From: an uncultured Mucilaginibacter sp.
GTDB lineage: Bacteria; Bacteroidota; Bacteroidia; Sphingobacteriales; Sphingobacteriaceae
Direction: 5' to 3'
Assembly (NCBI RefSeq): GCF_903893715.1
Contig: NZ_CAITNG010000094.1
Coordinates: 28,560 to 92,559 of the forward strand
DNA: 64,000 nt
The notes under the pieces were generated by a model. That model made no database searches. It saw only the letters and a list, made by a program, of their open reading frames with translations, and was not told the origin of the DNA. The position numbers and the translations under genes were made by a program. This document shows, piece by piece, positions 22,824 through 30,093 of the stretch. How positions within the stretch are numbered: the stretch's first letter is position 1; the number at the start of each line of letters is the position of its first letter.

Positions 22824-22867
22824 TTGTCACTCGTTGTTTTTTGTTAATTTGCGTTAAAAATCCTTAT

Positions 22868-24154
22868 ATGCCATTGAATCAGTTGCTCACCATCGATGAA
22901 GTAGCGCAAACTTTAAAGATAACAAGGCAAACATTATCTAAACTTATCAATAACAAAGATATTGTTGCCATCAAGATAAATAAAAGTTACCGTATACCAA
23001 GTGAGGCTTTGGAGAATTTTTTTAAACGAAACTCTTCGAAGCAAGACCTAAGCCATACTTATTTGAAAGAGACCCGTGGTTGCACGTTGACGTATCCCGA
23101 CAAGGATGCCGAAGAGGAAATACTAAATACGGCTGCTAATGCGGCGTTAAAGCAAGTTGTTAATGCGCACAATGAACTGTACAATGCTGTTTATTTTGGC
23201 GATAACCTGGAAGTGACGCGCGCGCTGCTACCTGAACTAAAGGGCAAAGTTGACCTGATTTATATCGACCCGCCATTTGCTACCGGAAGGGATTTTAACA
23301 GTATCGACCAAAACCACGCTTACTCGGATAAATTATTGAACGGCGAGTTCTTAGAATTTATCCGGAAAAGGCTCATCATCCTGCGCGAACTTTTGTCGGA
23401 CAAGGGCAGTATTTATCTCCATATTGATAAAAAAATAGGGCACTACGTTAAAATTATAATGGACGAGGTTTTTGGCTTCGATAATTTTATCAACGATATT
23501 ACCCGTATAAAATGTAACCCTAAAAACTTTGCCCGCAATGCCTACGGCAACTATTCGGACATGATATTGTTTTACGCCAAGCAAAGGGACCAAAATATTT
23601 GGAACGATGTGAAAGACGATTTCACAAATAAAAAACGCGACGAACTATTCGCGAAAACACACCCTGTACACGGGCAATACACTACTCACCCCTTGCATGC
23701 CCCCGGTGTAACTTTAGATGGCGACACCGGGAAAGAATGGAACGGTATGTTGCCGCCGCCCGGCCGGCACTGGCGCTATAGTCGCGAGGAATTAACGAGA
23801 TTAAATGAATCGGGATTCATCGAATGGTCTGACAAAGGTAACCCACGGAAAATTGTGTTGGCAAAAGAGCATAAAGGGATTAAAATACAGGACGTATGGG
23901 AGTTTAAAGATAAAGGGCTCTCCTTTGTGGACTATCCCACACAAAAAAACCACGATTTGTTGAAGCGCATTATTCTTAATTCTTCAAACCCCGGTTCGCT
24001 GGTATTAGATTGCTTTGCCGGGTCGGGCAGTACTTTATACATCGCCAATGAGTTGGTCAGGAAATGGGTCGGTATTGATAATTCGCCGGCCTCATTAGCC
24101 GTTATCAAAGCTAACTTTGCCAAAAATGATATTAAATGCAATTTTTTTGAATGA
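22868..24154 (+). CDS. Site-specific DNA methyltransferase (N6A/N4C, beta class, Mod-like) with an N-terminal excisionase-type HTH domain
   Basis: LLTIDEVAQTLKITRQTL...KSYRIP (HTH_17-like); GDNL, IYIDPPF (motif IV), YPTQK, LDCFAGSGST (motif I). ATG 22868 is preferred over 22841. Confidence 0.88.
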   Translation: MPLNQLLTIDEVAQTLKITRQTLSKLINNKDIVAIKINKSYRIPSEALENFFKRNSSKQDLSHTYLKETRGCTLTYPDKDAEEEILNTAANAALKQVVNAHNELYNAVYFGDNLEVTRALLPELKGKVDLIYIDPPFATGRDFNSIDQNHAYSDKLLNGEFLEFIRKRLIILRELLSDKGSIYLHIDKKIGHYVKIIMDEVFGFDNFINDITRIKCNPKNFARNAYGNYSDMILFYAKQRDQNIWNDVKDDFTNKKRDELFAKTHPVHGQYTTHPLHAPGVTLDGDTGKEWNGMLPPPGRHWRYSREELTRLNESGFIEWSDKGNPRKIVLAKEHKGIKIQDVWEFKDKGLSFVDYPTQKNHDLLKRIILNSSNPGSLVLDCFAGSGSTLYIANELVRKWVGIDNSPASLAVIKANFAKNDIKCNFFE

Positions 24155-24326
24155 GCTGTTTTCAATAATGCATCGATTTTTATAAATTTAAAGTGGAATT
24201 AACTGACCTAATGCTTTCGTTTATCATCAAGGGACTTGGTAAAATTGTAGTGACAATGCTGTTAATTACCTACGTTTTCATAATTTAACCTGATTCTACT
24301 TTACAAGGAGGGATTGTTGACCAAAG

Positions 24327-26207
24327 ATGTTAAACCGGTTTAAAATTTTATTGTTTGCTGTTATGCTCGTCTCGGCACTTTCGTGCCATCGCAAGCAAGA
24401 ACAAATACCTGTTGAAGCTTTTTTTAACGCGCAGGTTAGCAACTTTCACATCTCGCCAAACGGTAAATACATCTCTTATTTTAAAAGGGATAAAAAAAAG
24501 CAAACCCTCATCTTAAGGAATATCGCTACCGGTGTCGAAGACACGTCGGTTATTGACCAGGGCAGTCGCGGCGATCACTTTTGGACCTACAATAACCAAA
24601 TCGTCATCACAAAATACTCGCGCAAACGCGGGGGTTTTCAACTATCTGCCATTGATGCGGCCACTTTGAAAACGCGCACACTACTTTCCATTGATAATGA
24701 ACGGGTAAGTTTTAGGCTATTGGGCCGTAGTGTTAAACATCCCGATATTTTGACGTTCATTATGAATCAGCGCGATTCGACCATCCTCGATGTTTACCGC
24801 TTGAATATCACCACCGGCGAGTTGAAAATGTATATCAAGAATCCCGGTAACGTAACCCAGTTTTATACCGACCCGGACGGTGGCATACGGCTCGAAAAAT
24901 CATCAGATGGGGTGAATGAAACCATTTTGTACAGGCAGAACGACAATAGTGATTTTAAACCTATTTTAAGTAATAATTTTAAGAACCTGGTTGAGCCGAT
25001 AGCTTTTACAGGTGTCGGCAATTATTTCTACGCTAAATCAAACGTTAACCGTGATAAAATAGCCCTGGTGGATATCAATGCCGATAACGCGAAAGAGGAA
25101 AAAGTGATATTCTCGAGCGACAAGGCCGATATTGATGAGGTGAGCTATTCGAAATACAAACAGCGACTCGAAATGGTTACCTGGCAGGAGGCCAAACCTA
25201 AAAGGCATATTTTAGATGCCCGGATGAACGCCATCTACGCGGACCTGGAACAGCAATTGCCCGGCGATGAGATCAGGATATCCGACAGGGATACAACCGA
25301 ACAAAATTTCCTGATCAATACCTCGAGCGACCGTAATCCGGGGTCGACTTATCTTTATACCGCCGGCTCCAAAAAATTGGTAAAACTGGCCGATATGAAC
25401 CCGGGCATTAACCAGGGCGACCTGTGCGAAATGAAGCCTATATCGTTTAAGGCCGGCGACGGAACGTTGATTAATGGGTATTTGACTTATCCAAAAAACA
25501 CCGACTCCGTAAACTTGCCGGTGGTGGTAATGCCGCACAGCGATTTTTGGAACCGCAACAAATGGGGTTATAATGCAGAGGTGCAATTTTTGGCCAACCG
25601 AGGGTATGCCGTTTTCCAGGTAAACTATCGCGGCTCTACCGGGTATGGTAAAGAATTTTATAGCGCCGGATTTAAACAGGTAGGAGGTAAAATGCAGGAT
25701 GACATTACCGACGGCGTAGAATGGCTTATTGCCCAAAAAATAGCCAATCCTAAAAAAATAGCCATTTTTGGTTCACGCTTTGGCGGATTTTCGGCATTGT
25801 ATGGCGCATCTTTCCACCAAAGCTTGTATGCTTGCGTTGCGGTACAATCGCCTTTGCTTAATATGTTCACTTATTTTAGCGATGTGCCGCCTTTTTTGAA
25901 ACCCAAGTTGAGCATGCTTTACGAAATGGTGGGCAATCCCGAAACGGATGCCGATCAGTTTAGGGCCATATCCCCCATTTTTAATGCCAATAAAATCAAG
26001 GTTCCGCTTATCGTTTTTCCGGGCCCGCGAGAGCTTAACGCCAATGAATTGGCTACCTTTATCAGCGAAGTGAAAAAGAATGGTGTGCATGTAACCGATA
26101 TAAGCGGCAAAAAAAATAATGACAGCAACTTTTTACCCCGCGAACACCGGCTTGATATGTATAAGGACCTAGAAAAATTCCTCGAAACCAACTTGGGCCA
26201 AAAGTGA
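24327..26207 (+). CDS. S9 (prolyl oligopeptidase/acylaminoacyl peptidase) fold lipoprotein, predicted catalytically inactive
   Basis: Lipobox ALSC; propeller-like N-terminus; QFLANRGYAVFQVNYRGSTGYG and MQDDITDGVEWL as in S9C peptidases, but the nucleophile elbow is GSRFGG and the Asp/His motifs are absent. Confidence 0.88.
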   Translation: MLNRFKILLFAVMLVSALSCHRKQEQIPVEAFFNAQVSNFHISPNGKYISYFKRDKKKQTLILRNIATGVEDTSVIDQGSRGDHFWTYNNQIVITKYSRKRGGFQLSAIDAATLKTRTLLSIDNERVSFRLLGRSVKHPDILTFIMNQRDSTILDVYRLNITTGELKMYIKNPGNVTQFYTDPDGGIRLEKSSDGVNETILYRQNDNSDFKPILSNNFKNLVEPIAFTGVGNYFYAKSNVNRDKIALVDINADNAKEEKVIFSSDKADIDEVSYSKYKQRLEMVTWQEAKPKRHILDARMNAIYADLEQQLPGDEIRISDRDTTEQNFLINTSSDRNPGSTYLYTAGSKKLVKLADMNPGINQGDLCEMKPISFKAGDGTLINGYLTYPKNTDSVNLPVVVMPHSDFWNRNKWGYNAEVQFLANRGYAVFQVNYRGSTGYGKEFYSAGFKQVGGKMQDDITDGVEWLIAQKIANPKKIAIFGSRFGGFSALYGASFHQSLYACVAVQSPLLNMFTYFSDVPPFLKPKLSMLYEMVGNPETDADQFRAISPIFNANKIKVPLIVFPGPRELNANELATFISEVKKNGVHVTDISGKKNNDSNFLPREHRLDMYKDLEKFLETNLGQK

Positions 26208-26220
26208 GGCATATTGCTGA

Positions 26221-27861
26221 ATGACCAAGCAAAAATATATATACCGCAAAAACCTTCTACTGATTATTGCATTCATTGTGCTATTGTCGGGTATTTTGGC
26301 TGCGGCCTTACTCATTACCTTTGGGCTTACCCGTAAATTTGTAGAAAGTGAATTTTCTACCCGCACCATCGCCGTAATGGAGCGCACTATGCGACCATAT
26401 GATGACCTGTTTAGAAATAAAATACCCGAAATCAATAACTACCGAGGTTTTTTTACAAAAAAATCAGCTTCCGAGTATGCTGATTCCGTGTTCAGCGATT
26501 ACCCTTTTGTTAAACGCGTCGACTTTTATCATTTCACTATCAGTAACCACACCAACGGCCATTCAGCAAAAGCGGAAGGGAAGGATATCGCGATAAGCTC
26601 GGCTTATCATTTTAGCCCTGATAGCGGTGGTAAGATAAAAAGCAGTCCGAATGTAGAAGCGAAAAGCAGCGACGATTTTAAATTGATGAAGGCGAAAGTG
26701 GGTGGTTTTATCAAAACTGCGGATACCTCAAGGTTGTACTCGGTCGAAGAAACCTACGGGATATCGTACGATATCAAACCCGGTAAAATAAGCTATCTCA
26801 ACATACCGCGGCTCGAAGAATTGAAGGACCTGCTATCAAATACATCTACATTGTCTGTTTACCAGCACGATATGATGACCTTTTACCTGGATCCCAATAA
26901 ACTGGTTATCAGAAATACCCGCCCCGAGCTTTACCAAAAAATCAGTATCAAGCAAATCATTTACGACCCCCTGCAGGACGACAATGACCAAAACTTATTC
27001 CGTGAAATTCCCTTGCCCGGTGCATTCTCAGAGTATAAGCTGTATTTTCAATCGTCGAAAGCTTTTATTACCGCCGAGGTAATACGTAACTTTTTGCCCA
27101 TCGGGGCAGCCGTGCTGGTGGTATATTTGTTTATAGTTTGCATCGGCTGGCTTATTTACCGTAACCTGAACGTAAACCATAAACTGTTTAAGTTGCAGTA
27201 CGATTTCATTAATAACTTTACACACGAGTTTAAGACGCCCGTGAGCGTGATAAAAATTGCCGGGTCCAATTTGCGCAATGCCGAAACTGCTATTACCGAA
27301 AGGCAGCAAAGGCATTACGGCAAAATACTGGATGAAGAGGCTGATAAGCTGAACGACTTGATGAACCGCCTGCTCTCGTTTACACAACTCGAAAACAAAT
27401 CGATACAAATAAAAAAGGAAGAAATTGTGTTGGATGAATTTGTTCAGAAATATATCGATACCTTTAAAATTAAGTATCCGAAGTTTAAATTGACTTGCAG
27501 GATAAAAAATGTAGGTTCGTTCGAGTCGGACCCAGTGCTATTGGGCAGTATTTTTCAGAACATGATCGAGAATGCCTATAAATATTCGCCGCCCGACAGG
27601 AAAGAACTGAACATCGATATTGAGGGTACGAAAAAAGACATCGTTTTTTTGTTTACCGATAAAGGCATCGGCATTCCGAAAAATGAGATAGATAACATAT
27701 TTAAAAAGTTTTACAGGATAGAAAGCCAATATAACCAGAATGGCAGCGTGGGATTGGGTTTGGCTTTTTGCAAAGAACTGGTTAATTTTATGAATGGCGA
27801 GATCAGTGTTAAGAGCAAACTGAACCAGGGCTCCGAATTTAAGATAGTATTACCATATTAA
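26221..27861 (+). CDS. Sensor histidine kinase (two TM helices, large periplasmic domain)
   Basis: H-box THEFKTP, N-box NMIENAYKYS, DKGIGI, IFKKFYR, GLGLA. Confidence 0.95.
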   Translation: MTKQKYIYRKNLLLIIAFIVLLSGILAAALLITFGLTRKFVESEFSTRTIAVMERTMRPYDDLFRNKIPEINNYRGFFTKKSASEYADSVFSDYPFVKRVDFYHFTISNHTNGHSAKAEGKDIAISSAYHFSPDSGGKIKSSPNVEAKSSDDFKLMKAKVGGFIKTADTSRLYSVEETYGISYDIKPGKISYLNIPRLEELKDLLSNTSTLSVYQHDMMTFYLDPNKLVIRNTRPELYQKISIKQIIYDPLQDDNDQNLFREIPLPGAFSEYKLYFQSSKAFITAEVIRNFLPIGAAVLVVYLFIVCIGWLIYRNLNVNHKLFKLQYDFINNFTHEFKTPVSVIKIAGSNLRNAETAITERQQRHYGKILDEEADKLNDLMNRLLSFTQLENKSIQIKKEEIVLDEFVQKYIDTFKIKYPKFKLTCRIKNVGSFESDPVLLGSIFQNMIENAYKYSPPDRKELNIDIEGTKKDIVFLFTDKGIGIPKNEIDNIFKKFYRIESQYNQNGSVGLGLAFCKELVNFMNGEISVKSKLNQGSEFKIVLPY

Positions 27862-27873
27862 TTGATACCGATT

Positions 27874-28563
27874 ATGAACAAAGAAATTAAAATAGCCTTA
27901 GTTGAAGATGACGAAAACCTGCGGTTTTTAGTTGCCGAACGGTTAGAACTGGAAGGTTACAAAGTATTGGAAGCATCGAACGGCGAAGACGCCGAAAAAA
28001 TGATACTCGACGAAAAACCCGATATTGTTTTGTTGGATTGGATGCTGCCCGGCAAGCAGGGATCGGAAGTATGTACTGCCATCCGCGATAAAGGCTTTGA
28101 TAAACTGGTGATTATGATGACCGCCAAGGCACAGGACATCGATAAAATTGAGGCCTACCAGTTCGGCGTGTCCGACTATATCACCAAACCTTTTAATATG
28201 GATGTGCTGGTGGCGATGATAGACAATAAGATAAAATTTACTCTCAACAGCGAAAAGCCAGAATCATACAAATTTGCCAATATGGAGCATCACCCAAATA
28301 CCCACACGCTGTTGCGCGATGGCAAAAGGGTAGAGCTGACCATTTTGGAGAACCGTATTTTGTTGTACTTCCTTAAAAACGAGAACAAGGTAATTAACCG
28401 AGACGAACTGATGATGGAAGTTTGGGGTTATAATGCCGATGTAAATACCCGCACGCTGGATATGCACATTGTGCGCCTGCGTAAAAAGATAGAAGTAAAT
28501 CCCGATTCGCCTTTGTACCTGCAAACCGTAAGGGGGGTTGGTTATAAGTTTACCAGCAGCTAA
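27874..28563 (+). CDS. OmpR/PhoB-family response regulator
   Basis: VEDD, LLDWMLP, MTAK, DYITKPF; winged-helix TRTLDMHIVRLRKKIE...TVRGVGYKF. Confidence 0.95.
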   Translation: MNKEIKIALVEDDENLRFLVAERLELEGYKVLEASNGEDAEKMILDEKPDIVLLDWMLPGKQGSEVCTAIRDKGFDKLVIMMTAKAQDIDKIEAYQFGVSDYITKPFNMDVLVAMIDNKIKFTLNSEKPESYKFANMEHHPNTHTLLRDGKRVELTILENRILLYFLKNENKVINRDELMMEVWGYNADVNTRTLDMHIVRLRKKIEVNPDSPLYLQTVRGVGYKFTSS

Positions 28564-29207
28564 AAATCAGAAGCAAGAATCAAGAGGCAAGACTTTTGAT
28601 ATTCGGTAGAGATTATAAAATCAGCGAAAAATGTTTTCGCTGATTTTTTTTTGTACCCCTTGCCGTTGAATTGCGCTTCGATGTTGGGCATGGTGGTGGT
28701 TTCTATCCTGCAAAGGAGCTTAAAGAAAATGTACATGGTTTTGAGCAATGCGCGTTGCCACAATGCTCCCGTTATTTGAAAATCGCTACAGAGCCATATC
28801 CCATCGGTTTTAAGCAAGCTATTAATGTGATTGAATACGGTCTGAAGCGTTTTCTCGGTAAAATTATCGAACAAAAACGGCGTTATCACTACATCAAAAG
28901 ATAGACTGAAGGGTACATTTTCAACCGCCTCATTAATAAAGGTTACCCGGTTATTACCGTGGTTTTTCTTTTTTGCGATGGCCATCATCTTAGCAGATAT
29001 CTCCACGTAAGTAATGTTTAAACCGCTTGGGTATATTTTGGCAATCTCTTCCAATAAGCGGCCGGTGCCACCGCCGACAATGAGTATAGTTGCATTGGAG
29101 GGGATAAATTGCAGCAAATAAACCTGCGAACTAATCAAAGCATTACCATACACTACGCGCGATAGGCCATCATAGAACCATGCTGAATTATCGTAGTTCG
29201 AGGCCAT
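28560..29207 (-). CDS. Class I SAM-dependent methyltransferase
   Basis: YD..AWFYD, ILIVGGGTG, YVEIS.KM and DVVITPFLFD motifs; start at 29207 (MASNYD). Confidence 0.87.
   Translation of the reverse strand: MASNYDNSAWFYDGLSRVVYGNALISSQVYLLQFIPSNATILIVGGGTGRLLEEIAKIYPSGLNITYVEISAKMMAIAKKKNHGNNRVTFINEAVENVPFSLSFDVVITPFLFDNFTEKTLQTVFNHINSLLKTDGIWLCSDFQITGALWQRALLKTMYIFFKLLCRIETTTMPNIEAQFNGKGYKKKSAKTFFADFIISTEYQKSCLLILASDF
28567..28594 (+). repeat. Short heptamer array (CAAGAAT CAAGAGG CAAGACT)
   Basis: CAAGA at 28574, 28581 and 28588 (7-nt period), preceded by CAGAAG. Confidence 0.6.
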
Positions 29208-29211
29208 GCGA

Positions 29212-30093
29212 TCAGGGTATGAATTTAAAGGCCAACAAAATGACATATTGCAATATCAATATGCCATCCATGTAAAAAAAGTAATAGTACTCATCCTTTT
29301 CCCATTCCGATTTAAAGATGAGCCAGCCGGTCAGGATGGTGGTGAGCCCCAGTGCGAAGAAATCGGGACTAAAGCCGTTGCCCCTGAACAAAAACAACAG
29401 CACCATGTAAATAGCCAATAAGGCCTGGCAAAAAAGGTAGGCTTTTTTCTCTCCAAAAATAACCGGGATTGTTTTTACGCCTTCAATGCTGTCCTGAAAG
29501 AGGTCGCGGATATCGAAGGGGATGGTCAACGCGAAAATGAAGACGAATCGTTTGGCGAACAAGATGGCTTCATCTGAAAATGACAGACGGACCAATTGCG
29601 CCCGTTCGGCTTCAAATATGGGCAACAGCACGCCGCTTACGGTCCAAACCAGGGCAATCATCAACGATTTGATGCCGGGCACACTACGTAAGCCGAACTT
29701 TTTACCACGGATGGAAAATATGGGTAAACCATACCCTATGGACAAAACAGAAAGGAATACCAGCAATATTTGTGAAACCGGCGATAGCAGGAAAAACAAA
29801 GGCATCAACACAATGCCCGAGATGATGGTGATAAGCACCATAACTTTGTTGTGTTTAAAAAACCATCGCACACGCAAAAAAGGCGATGCTTGGGGCTCTT
29901 TCGGCTTGCCCGCAAAAACATTGAGATTGTAAGTAAAAATGGTGGATACAAAGAGGAGCACAAAAAGTGGATAAGTGGTGGGCCGCGCACCGATAAGCTG
30001 TAAAGTTACCAGGGCCTGTGCCACCGCGCACAGTGCCATAAACAGATTGCTGAACAGCAAAGAATCGAAAAATGGCTTAAAAAACGTTTTCAT
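29212..30093 (-). CDS. UbiA-prenyltransferase-like membrane protein
   Basis: About 8 TM helices; second Asp-rich motif FDIRDLFQDSIEGVKTIP is present; the first motif is degenerate (TYNLN). Confidence 0.7.
   Translation of the reverse strand: MKTFFKPFFDSLLFSNLFMALCAVAQALVTLQLIGARPTTYPLFVLLFVSTIFTYNLNVFAGKPKEPQASPFLRVRWFFKHNKVMVLITIISGIVLMPLFFLLSPVSQILLVFLSVLSIGYGLPIFSIRGKKFGLRSVPGIKSLMIALVWTVSGVLLPIFEAERAQLVRLSFSDEAILFAKRFVFIFALTIPFDIRDLFQDSIEGVKTIPVIFGEKKAYLFCQALLAIYMVLLFLFRGNGFSPDFFALGLTTILTGWLIFKSEWEKDEYYYFFYMDGILILQYVILLAFKFIP

Follow-up and report, generated by a model that had tools for sequence, protein, structure and literature searches.

What does a peptidase fold do at the head of a two-component operon when its catalytic residues have been replaced? 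The question is raised by three genes on the forward strand of a 64,000-nucleotide (nt) stretch of DNA from an uncultured Mucilaginibacter sp., called the window here. The first gene (24327..26207) encodes a lipoprotein of 626 amino acids (aa) with the fold of S9 peptidases. The second (26221..27861) encodes a sensor histidine kinase of 546 aa, and the third (27874..28563) an OmpR/PhoB-type response regulator of 229 aa counted from the ATG at 27874; the longest open reading frame (ORF) of the regulator begins at a TTG at 27862. An earlier note on this DNA described three co-directional genes with gaps of 13 and 12 nt, and both gaps were upheld, the first between the S9-like gene and the kinase gene and the second between the kinase and regulator genes. 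We give about an even chance to the reading that the lipoprotein assists the kinase without catalysis, as an accessory protein or co-sensor, in the manner of LuxP-LuxQ or DPP6/10-Kv4.

The lipoprotein belongs to the S9 homology family. Residues 413-625 matched the Pfam profile PF00326 (Peptidase_S9) from position 1 to 212 of 213 (E = 6e-31), and the score was 108 bits against a cut-off of 22.6. In the AlphaFold2 model, which had a predicted local distance difference test (pLDDT) value of 84.8, all-beta blades formed a beta-propeller (approximately aa 37-356), followed by an alpha/beta-hydrolase domain (approximately aa 369-626). The top Foldseek match was 5l8s, with a template-modelling (TM) score of 0.76-0.79 and the two-domain architecture in common. 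The full-length matches to 5l8s, 2bkl, 8wt1, and 4hxg gave TM scores of 0.65-0.79 and covered the propeller. The signal peptide ends in a lipobox, MLNRFKILLFAVMLVSALS-C20 (Cys20 codon, 24384-24386), that agrees with the PROSITE-type lipobox pattern. Cys20 was invariant across 50 aligned homologues. The protein is predicted to be lipidated, and it would face the periplasm.

The equivalence of the catalytic residues was read from a phmmer alignment to the best sequence match of the lipoprotein (E = 2.9e-24), PDB entry 5l8s, an acylaminoacyl peptidase of Sporosarcina psychrophila. Arg484 in GSRFGG (codon 25776-25778) aligned with the nucleophile Ser458 in GGSYGG, and Ser600 in NDSNF (codon 26124-26126) aligned with His572. 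Glu569 in GPRELN (codon 26031-26033) aligned with Asp540, a conservative replacement that keeps the acid charge. HSDF (aa 404-407; 25536-25547) occupies the position of HGGP in the oxyanion region, and the motif is thus absent. The former His loop (aa 596-602) was modelled with a pLDDT below 50. Since the Ser-Asp-His triad is missing, the window protein is a non-peptidase homologue in MEROPS usage, as judged from its sequence. The earlier note had claimed that the S9 fold signatures were kept and that the triad was altered, naming Arg484 and its codon, HSDF, GPRELNA, and NDSNF, and it had suggested an alignment to PF00326 as a check. The whole-profile match, the model, and the structural match to 5l8s support the first claim, and the alignment to 5l8s confirmed every residue and the position of the Arg484 codon.

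The same site is degenerate in close relatives. The 120 closest database proteins were 54-72% identical to the window protein, and the named sources were nearly all Mucilaginibacter. None of the 120 had the catalytic His, and the nucleophile position was Gly, Arg, or Ser. Position 483 was also variable (S, G, A, N, T, D, or W), as was the His loop in both length and sequence. Several Mucilaginibacter copies (P0023, P0031, P0032, and others) and locus L004 have Ser at the nucleophile position (GGSFGG) without the His, and these Mucilaginibacter copies nest among Gly-bearing relatives. The Ser in His-less copies was either regained or tolerated at an unconstrained site.

In contrast to the lipoprotein, the two-component system looks catalytically competent, as judged by its motifs. 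The kinase matched PF00512 (HisKA) and PF02518 (HATPase_c, aa 437-545) and contained the H-box FTHEFKTP with His335 (codon 27223-27225), as well as NAYKYS, DKGIGI, and GSVGLGL for the N and G boxes; no Pfam match to a HAMP domain was found in it. The regulator was identified by Pfam and NCBIfam. It matched PF00072 and PF00486 and has an EDDE acidic pocket, the receiver Asp55 in LLDWMLPG (codon 28036-28038), the Lys in TAKA, and a winged-helix DNA-binding domain. Automated sources name homologues of the kinase "PhoR." This identity was rejected, as the kinase scored 90 bits with the NCBIfam model of Bacteroidota PhoR against a curated cut-off of 500. An identity of the regulator as PhoB was also rejected: it scored 134 bits against 270 with the Bacteroidota PhoB model, and five regulators in the same genome scored higher.

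Hydropathy analysis placed two transmembrane segments in the kinase (approximately aa 12-34 and 290-313). Approximately 255 aa lie between them (aa 35-289; 26323-27087), in agreement with the periplasmic domain of about 250 aa given in the earlier note. Residues 31-295 were modelled with 52 homologues at a pLDDT of 89. The model consists of a long N-terminal helix and then two PDC modules, located between the transmembrane helices, which is the order of a dCache domain. The top Foldseek matches in the PDB (9heh, 3lie, 5wbf, 6e0a, 9nj8, and 4jgo) were all dCache ligand-binding domains, and the proteins matched were MkcA (E = 2.4e-5), vpHK1S-Z8, TlpC, TlpA, CqsR, and KinD. Because the TM scores of these matches were only 0.3-0.45, we term the fold double-Cache-like. 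The Pfam dCache profile did not match the domain.

We surveyed the distribution of the operon in 121 Sphingobacteriaceae genomes (family survey) and in 301 genomes of the class, nine from the family and 292 others (class survey); as these are samples, "not found" refers to the genomes searched. A full-length, single-copy S9 orthologue was present in 105 of the 121 family genomes and in 34 of 37 genera. Among the first 29 family loci, 27 had the orthologous kinase gene directly 3' of the S9 gene on the same strand, with a match that included the periplasmic domain from residue 1 and a gene order of S9, kinase, and regulator or of S9 and kinase; in the remaining two, the contig breaks off at or shortly after the S9 gene. 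The full order of S9, kinase, and regulator genes was seen in all 36 further loci of main orthologues, which were chosen to cover the remaining genera. In these 36 loci, the regulators were 62-75% identical, the kinases 43-52%, and the S9 proteins 32-44%; across the family loci overall, the regulator was 62-83% identical. Linkage was thus observed in 63 of 65 relatives' loci, that is, in every locus with enough flanking sequence, which bears out the claim that the lipoprotein is co-encoded with the two-component system. Extra S9 copies in three genomes (L058, L071, and L091) do not adjoin the kinase and regulator genes.

Both the S9 gene and the kinase gene were found in 105 of the 121 family genomes, the kinase alone in six, and neither in ten; none of the 121 had a linked S9 gene without the kinase. 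Six of the ten genomes with neither, from genera g14, g19, g20, and g33, have a completeness of 98% or more, and other sampled members of g14, g20, and g33 carry both genes. Such an imbalance is in keeping with an accessory protein that relies on the two-component system for its use. Outside the family, the N-terminal 320 residues of the kinase matched none of the 292 other genomes of the class, and all nine family genomes were matched. With a cut-off of 1e-60, the regulator was found in all nine family genomes and in one of the 292 others, at 46% identity. S9 relatives with 29-41% identity occur in many other families, and no kinase-regulator pair was located within 4 kb in 19 of 20 loci of such relatives. 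Judging from these searches, the kinase and regulator have no clear orthologue outside Sphingobacteriaceae among the genomes sampled. The possibility that the module is common to other Bacteroidia is ruled out for the sampled genomes by the kinase-sensor and regulator searches.

The catalytic states of 66 linked S9 proteins were compared with those of 22 unlinked ones, 19 from outside the family and three in-family paralogues. All 22 unlinked proteins keep HGGP, GxSYGG, DPRV, and EGHGF. The earlier note had asked whether triad loss goes together with synteny and had named intact orthologues beside the two-component system as evidence against its proposal. The answer is divided: 43 of the 66 linked proteins lack at least one triad residue (dead copies), usually through replacement of Ser by Gly and of His by various residues, whereas 23 of the 66 keep Ser-Asp-His beside the same kinase. 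The latter count in part against the proposal, and deadness is therefore no defining property of the module. No copy is more degenerate than that of the window.

A maximum-likelihood tree of the S9 proteins was constructed by a quick search after removal of the catalytic columns. The linked proteins formed a single clade (99 in the Shimodaira-Hasegawa-like approximate likelihood ratio test), with at least 11 changes between the intact and dead states inside the clade and none outside. Changes also occurred within genera (L076 versus L057, L082 versus L066, and L015/L021 versus L028); the count of 11 therefore does not rest on deep branches alone. According to this tree, the gene of an active S9 enzyme became linked to the kinase gene a single time, and loss of catalysis followed on many occasions. 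The operon predates triad loss, and deadness is not required for the partnership. From the same node, the rate of evolution was approximately 2.3 times higher in linked than in unlinked copies, and the distances from the node were 1.29 and 1.00 substitutions per site for dead and intact copies, respectively.

The dead copies are under strong constraint. The Nei-Gojobori ratio of nonsynonymous to synonymous substitution rates (dN/dS) was 0.050 and 0.048 in two unsaturated pairs of dead copies (dS 0.33 and 0.66) and 0.02-0.06 in further dead pairs at higher dS; that of an intact outgroup pair was 0.047. The hydrolase domain of dead copies retains long conserved blocks, and only positions 484, 599, 600, 507, and 523 are relaxed in comparison with intact and unlinked copies. 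This pattern is expected if the fold and the pocket are in use and the chemistry is not. All 66 linked copies had a Cys where the signal peptide ends, and 47 of the 66 had a strict lipobox, versus 8 of 23 other copies (the 22 unlinked ones and L092). Decay to a pseudogene is ruled out by the dN/dS of approximately 0.05 in the dead pairs together with full-length retention across genera, so the preference of the earlier note for repurposing over decay stands. One linked copy, L087 (G117:C23), has an in-frame TAA and the longest branch of the tree, which suggests that it is decaying; the same genome has an unlinked paralogue, L071 (G117:C29), with the full triad.

We compared pairwise distances among the parts of the operon. 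Those of the S9 propeller correlated with those of the kinase sensor domain at r = 0.69, in comparison with r = 0.48 for the kinase core and r = 0.52 for the regulator. After controlling for the regulator and the kinase core, the partial correlation between propeller and sensor was r = 0.54. The pairs are non-independent, and the correlation is entangled with common phylogeny or with a generally faster rate of periplasmic parts, a trivial effect; the correlation is therefore only suggestive of co-evolution between the propeller and the sensor domain.

Upstream of the S9 gene, a position weight matrix (PWM) identified a direct-repeat box, TGGTAAAATTGTAGTGACAATG (24237..24258, forward strand), which consists of two TGTwAmA-like half-sites 11 bp apart. 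A -7-like promoter box downstream of it, TAATTTAA (24281..24288, forward strand), is of the TAnnTTTG type, the -7 consensus of Bacteroidota. With a PWM search, the repeat box (consensus nGTAwwwwTwwwnGTTACA, half-sites 11 bp apart) was located 54-177 nt ahead of the S9 start codon in 63 of the 66 family loci, and in most loci a TAnnTT[TCA][AG] box follows it by 21-33 nt (mode 25-27). Activators of the OmpR/PhoB type typically show such a geometry of box and promoter. Autoregulation is thus the simplest explanation, and the repeat box is a candidate site for binding of the OmpR-type regulator that the operon encodes.

We also scanned the genome of the window for the repeat box. There were 33 matches of at least 16 bits versus 11-17 in shuffled sequences, an enrichment of approximately twofold, and the box of the window corresponds to the match C94:52796. 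As the enrichment is weak and the downstream genes are heterogeneous, we claim no regulon from the repeat box. The best match in the genome, GGGTAAAATTAGTGTTACAGTA (23.7 bits), lies outside the window on contig C4 of the same genome (G000; 29352-60402), 141 bp upstream of a gene for a membrane protein of 119 aa. Contig C4 has four matches of at least 16 bits within 31 kb, with neighbors including an extracytoplasmic function (ECF) sigma factor and a thioesterase, and this region may be part of a regulon.

On the reading that the lipoprotein is a non-catalytic partner of the kinase, the three genes would form one transcription unit specific to Sphingobacteriaceae, which the regulator encoded in it would probably switch on through the upstream repeat box. 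The lipoprotein would have an active enzyme of the S9C type (acylaminoacyl-peptidase-like) as its ancestor and would have arisen by duplication or transfer. After linkage of the gene to the kinase, its value would have been independent of hydrolysis, and the Ser and His would have been lost repeatedly, with the propeller-plus-hydrolase cage and most of the pocket retained. What the lipoprotein binds would be a peptide-like ligand, the kinase's double-Cache-like domain, or both, and binding would tune the kinase-versus-phosphatase output toward the OmpR-type regulator. Such a binding role within the signalling module is the most economical mechanism. Synteny, the phyletic pattern, and the distance correlation are the indirect grounds for a putative physical contact with the kinase, and ligand binding by the lipoprotein is likewise putative. 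In a more specific form, which we put forward tentatively and regard as rather doubtful, the S9 cage would be a periplasmic peptide receptor: a ligand would be trapped between the two domains, and the loaded lipoprotein would dock on the double-Cache-like domain.

Several observations, together with the confounded distance correlation, weigh against a partnership with the kinase. Five genomes in which the upstream sequence is available (L095-L099) carry an intact kinase-regulator pair with no S9 match upstream, and the kinase can therefore do without the S9 protein. Four of them are of genus g13 (1.7-2.0 Mb) and the fifth is G101; in the sixth kinase-only genome, the kinase gene sits at a contig edge. 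At L097, the one locus that was read through, only 88 bp separate the start of the kinase gene from the conserved divergent TPR gene, and the S9 gene has been cleanly deleted. Direct binding of small ligands is the usual mode of double-Cache domains. Co-transcription alone would explain the synteny were the S9 gene merely an output gene. Conservation of the sensor domain was alike with intact and dead partners (0.58 versus 0.57), with only a handful of differing sites. This rules out that the sensor domain changes overall with the state of the S9 protein, and it fits a non-catalytic S9 role and equally a kinase that senses something unrelated.

In the main alternative, the S9 protein would be simply the first product of an autoregulated operon. 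It would bind or scaffold in the envelope, for instance by capturing peptides or as a chaperone, and would give no feedback to the kinase, which would sense its own small ligand through the double-Cache-like domain. The matches of the sensor fold to ligand-binding domains, the survival of the kinase-regulator pair in the five genomes, and the indifference of sensor conservation to the S9 state all agree with such an output gene, as does the conserved box, which suggests that the operon itself is a target of the regulator. We nevertheless consider it unlikely. The linked S9 gene never occurred without the kinase in the 121 genomes, and both were absent together in several lineages. The tiny gaps and the fixed order across approximately 34 genera suggest stoichiometric co-production, and the propeller distances correlate better with those of the periplasmic sensor than with those of the cytoplasmic parts.

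Two further explanations retain catalysis. In one, the peptidase would make or destroy the ligand of the kinase, and the triad-less copies, that of the window included, would come from lineages that have stopped using this input and would be on their way out, as the in-frame stop on the long branch of L087 and the deletion of the gene in some genomes might suggest; the full triad and HGGP are present in 23 of the 66 linked orthologues. Such enzymatic signal processing fits the intact copies but leaves the strong constraint on the dead ones unexplained: their dN/dS of 0.05 at dS 0.33-0.66 is the same as that of active outgroup enzymes, they are full length across whole genera, their non-catalytic residues are still conserved, and all of the 120 closest homologues of the window protein lack the His. 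We regard it as improbable. Less probable still is residual or altered catalysis through other residues, for example Ser483 by the elbow or Glu569. Ser483 stands one position before the canonical nucleophile, Glu569 keeps the acid, and the GGSFGG relatives have a nucleophile Ser without the His. However, position 483 varies among the homologues, and there is no conserved His that could serve as a substitute. The His loop differs between copies and is modelled at a pLDDT below 50, and the oxyanion HGGP is also gone in the window copy.

Among known systems, DPP6 (DPPX) and DPP10 with Kv4 are the closest parallel in fold and logic. These proteins likewise have the S9 fold of propeller and alpha/beta-hydrolase domain, have lost the nucleophile Ser, and are non-catalytic auxiliary subunits of Kv4 potassium channels. 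Fly DPP10 is a Kv4 subunit that still digests peptides, and mammalian DPP6/10 are inactive (PMC4873792). The DPP6/DPP10 family thus holds both active and dead states, as does the linked S9 clade. Unlike these eukaryotic type II membrane proteins of subfamily S9B with an ion-channel partner, the window protein is a bacterial lipoprotein nearest to S9C acylaminoacyl peptidases, and its presumed partner is a histidine kinase. The S9C enzymes themselves, such as 5l8s, have the same two-domain architecture, with Ser458-Asp540-His572 and HGGP in place of the Arg/Glu/Ser and HSDF of the window protein.

In LuxP-LuxQ and TorT-TorS, periplasmic binding proteins deliver a signal to a sensor kinase, and the periplasmic domain of LuxQ is a tandem PDC/PAS fold that docks LuxP. 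The likeness lies in a separate, co-encoded periplasmic protein and in the double-Cache/tandem-PDC-like domain of the window kinase. LuxP and TorT have periplasmic-binding-protein folds without enzyme ancestry, whereas the putative docking partner here has a peptidase fold. Protease-fold (CPBP/Abi) membrane proteins control histidine kinases by protein-protein contact in Abx1-CovS, SpdC-WalK, and CflP-CovS (PMC3578759, PMC5854430, PMC13692083); of the three abstracts, only that on CflP calls the protein noncatalytic. Abx1, SpdC, and CflP come from Firmicutes and act inside the membrane as polytopic, intramembrane metalloprotease-like proteins; the window protein has a soluble-domain serine-peptidase fold and is lipid-anchored in a Bacteroidota envelope. 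Input by a lipoprotein is also known: NlpE feeds envelope information into the Cpx two-component pathway. RcsF feeds such information into a phosphorelay (PMC12189002). Both have small, unrelated folds, are encoded outside the kinase operon, and are without enzyme ancestry. Full-text literature searches found no paper on the operon or on an S9-fold partner of a histidine kinase, and a survey of prokaryotic prolyl oligopeptidases (PMC4522959) contained no text on linkage to a kinase.

A second dead S9 lipoprotein was observed in another family of the class, at L092 (7453-11728; G358) and L100 (G413). It has Phe/Asp/Arg at the triad positions, has lost HGGP, and is encoded head-to-head with a different kinase-regulator pair at a distance of 113 bp, an arrangement kept in both genomes of the genus. 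The periplasmic domain of this kinase is approximately 230 aa. It is not a distant orthologue of the window system, as the hhalign probability for the sensor domains was 0.3% and the regulators were only 33% identical. As the sensor domains are dissimilar, it may represent an independent pairing of a dead S9 protein with a two-component system.

At the locus of Mucilaginibacter gracilis (L094), as in the window, the upstream neighbors are a divergent TPR gene followed by DUF4286 and dTDP-sugar isomerase genes, and the downstream neighbors are a convergent methyltransferase gene, UbiA, and a metallophosphoesterase gene. The Sphingobacterium lactis locus has in common with the window only DUF4286 and the three operon genes. 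Between the divergent TPR gene and the S9 gene, the window contains a gene for a helix-turn-helix (HTH)-fused DNA methyltransferase (22841-24154). It is absent at the M. gracilis locus and had no match in any locus searched for it, and therefore looks like a recent insertion.

Past the operon, 54 nt after the stop codon of the regulator gene, a consensus scan found a terminator-like hairpin (28617..28647, forward strand) with a 14-bp stem and a T run behind it; such sites are as numerous in the region as in shuffled sequence. The convergent methyltransferase ORF (28560-29246, minus strand) contains the hairpin in its 3' end. The hairpin may terminate transcription in both directions, and if so the true end of that ORF may lie upstream of it.

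Signalling pseudoenzymes are well documented in eukaryotes, and few examples are known from the bacterial envelope. The evidence here is evolutionary: a single origin of the linkage, repeated triad loss under purifying selection, and unlinked relatives that were all intact among those sampled. If the peptide-receptor reading were true, it would represent a previously unknown class of bacterial co-receptor, and the family would be a natural series in which an enzyme became a pure receptor at least 11 times, with both states coexisting. Species with intact, Ser-less, His-less, fully dead, or deleted copies offer a comparative system, and their comparison could show what the S9 fold does for a sensor kinase and by what route an enzyme turns into a receptor or regulator. 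The operon is also a way into an uncharacterised two-component system that is present in most of the Sphingobacteriaceae sampled and is labelled "PhoR" by annotation pipelines.

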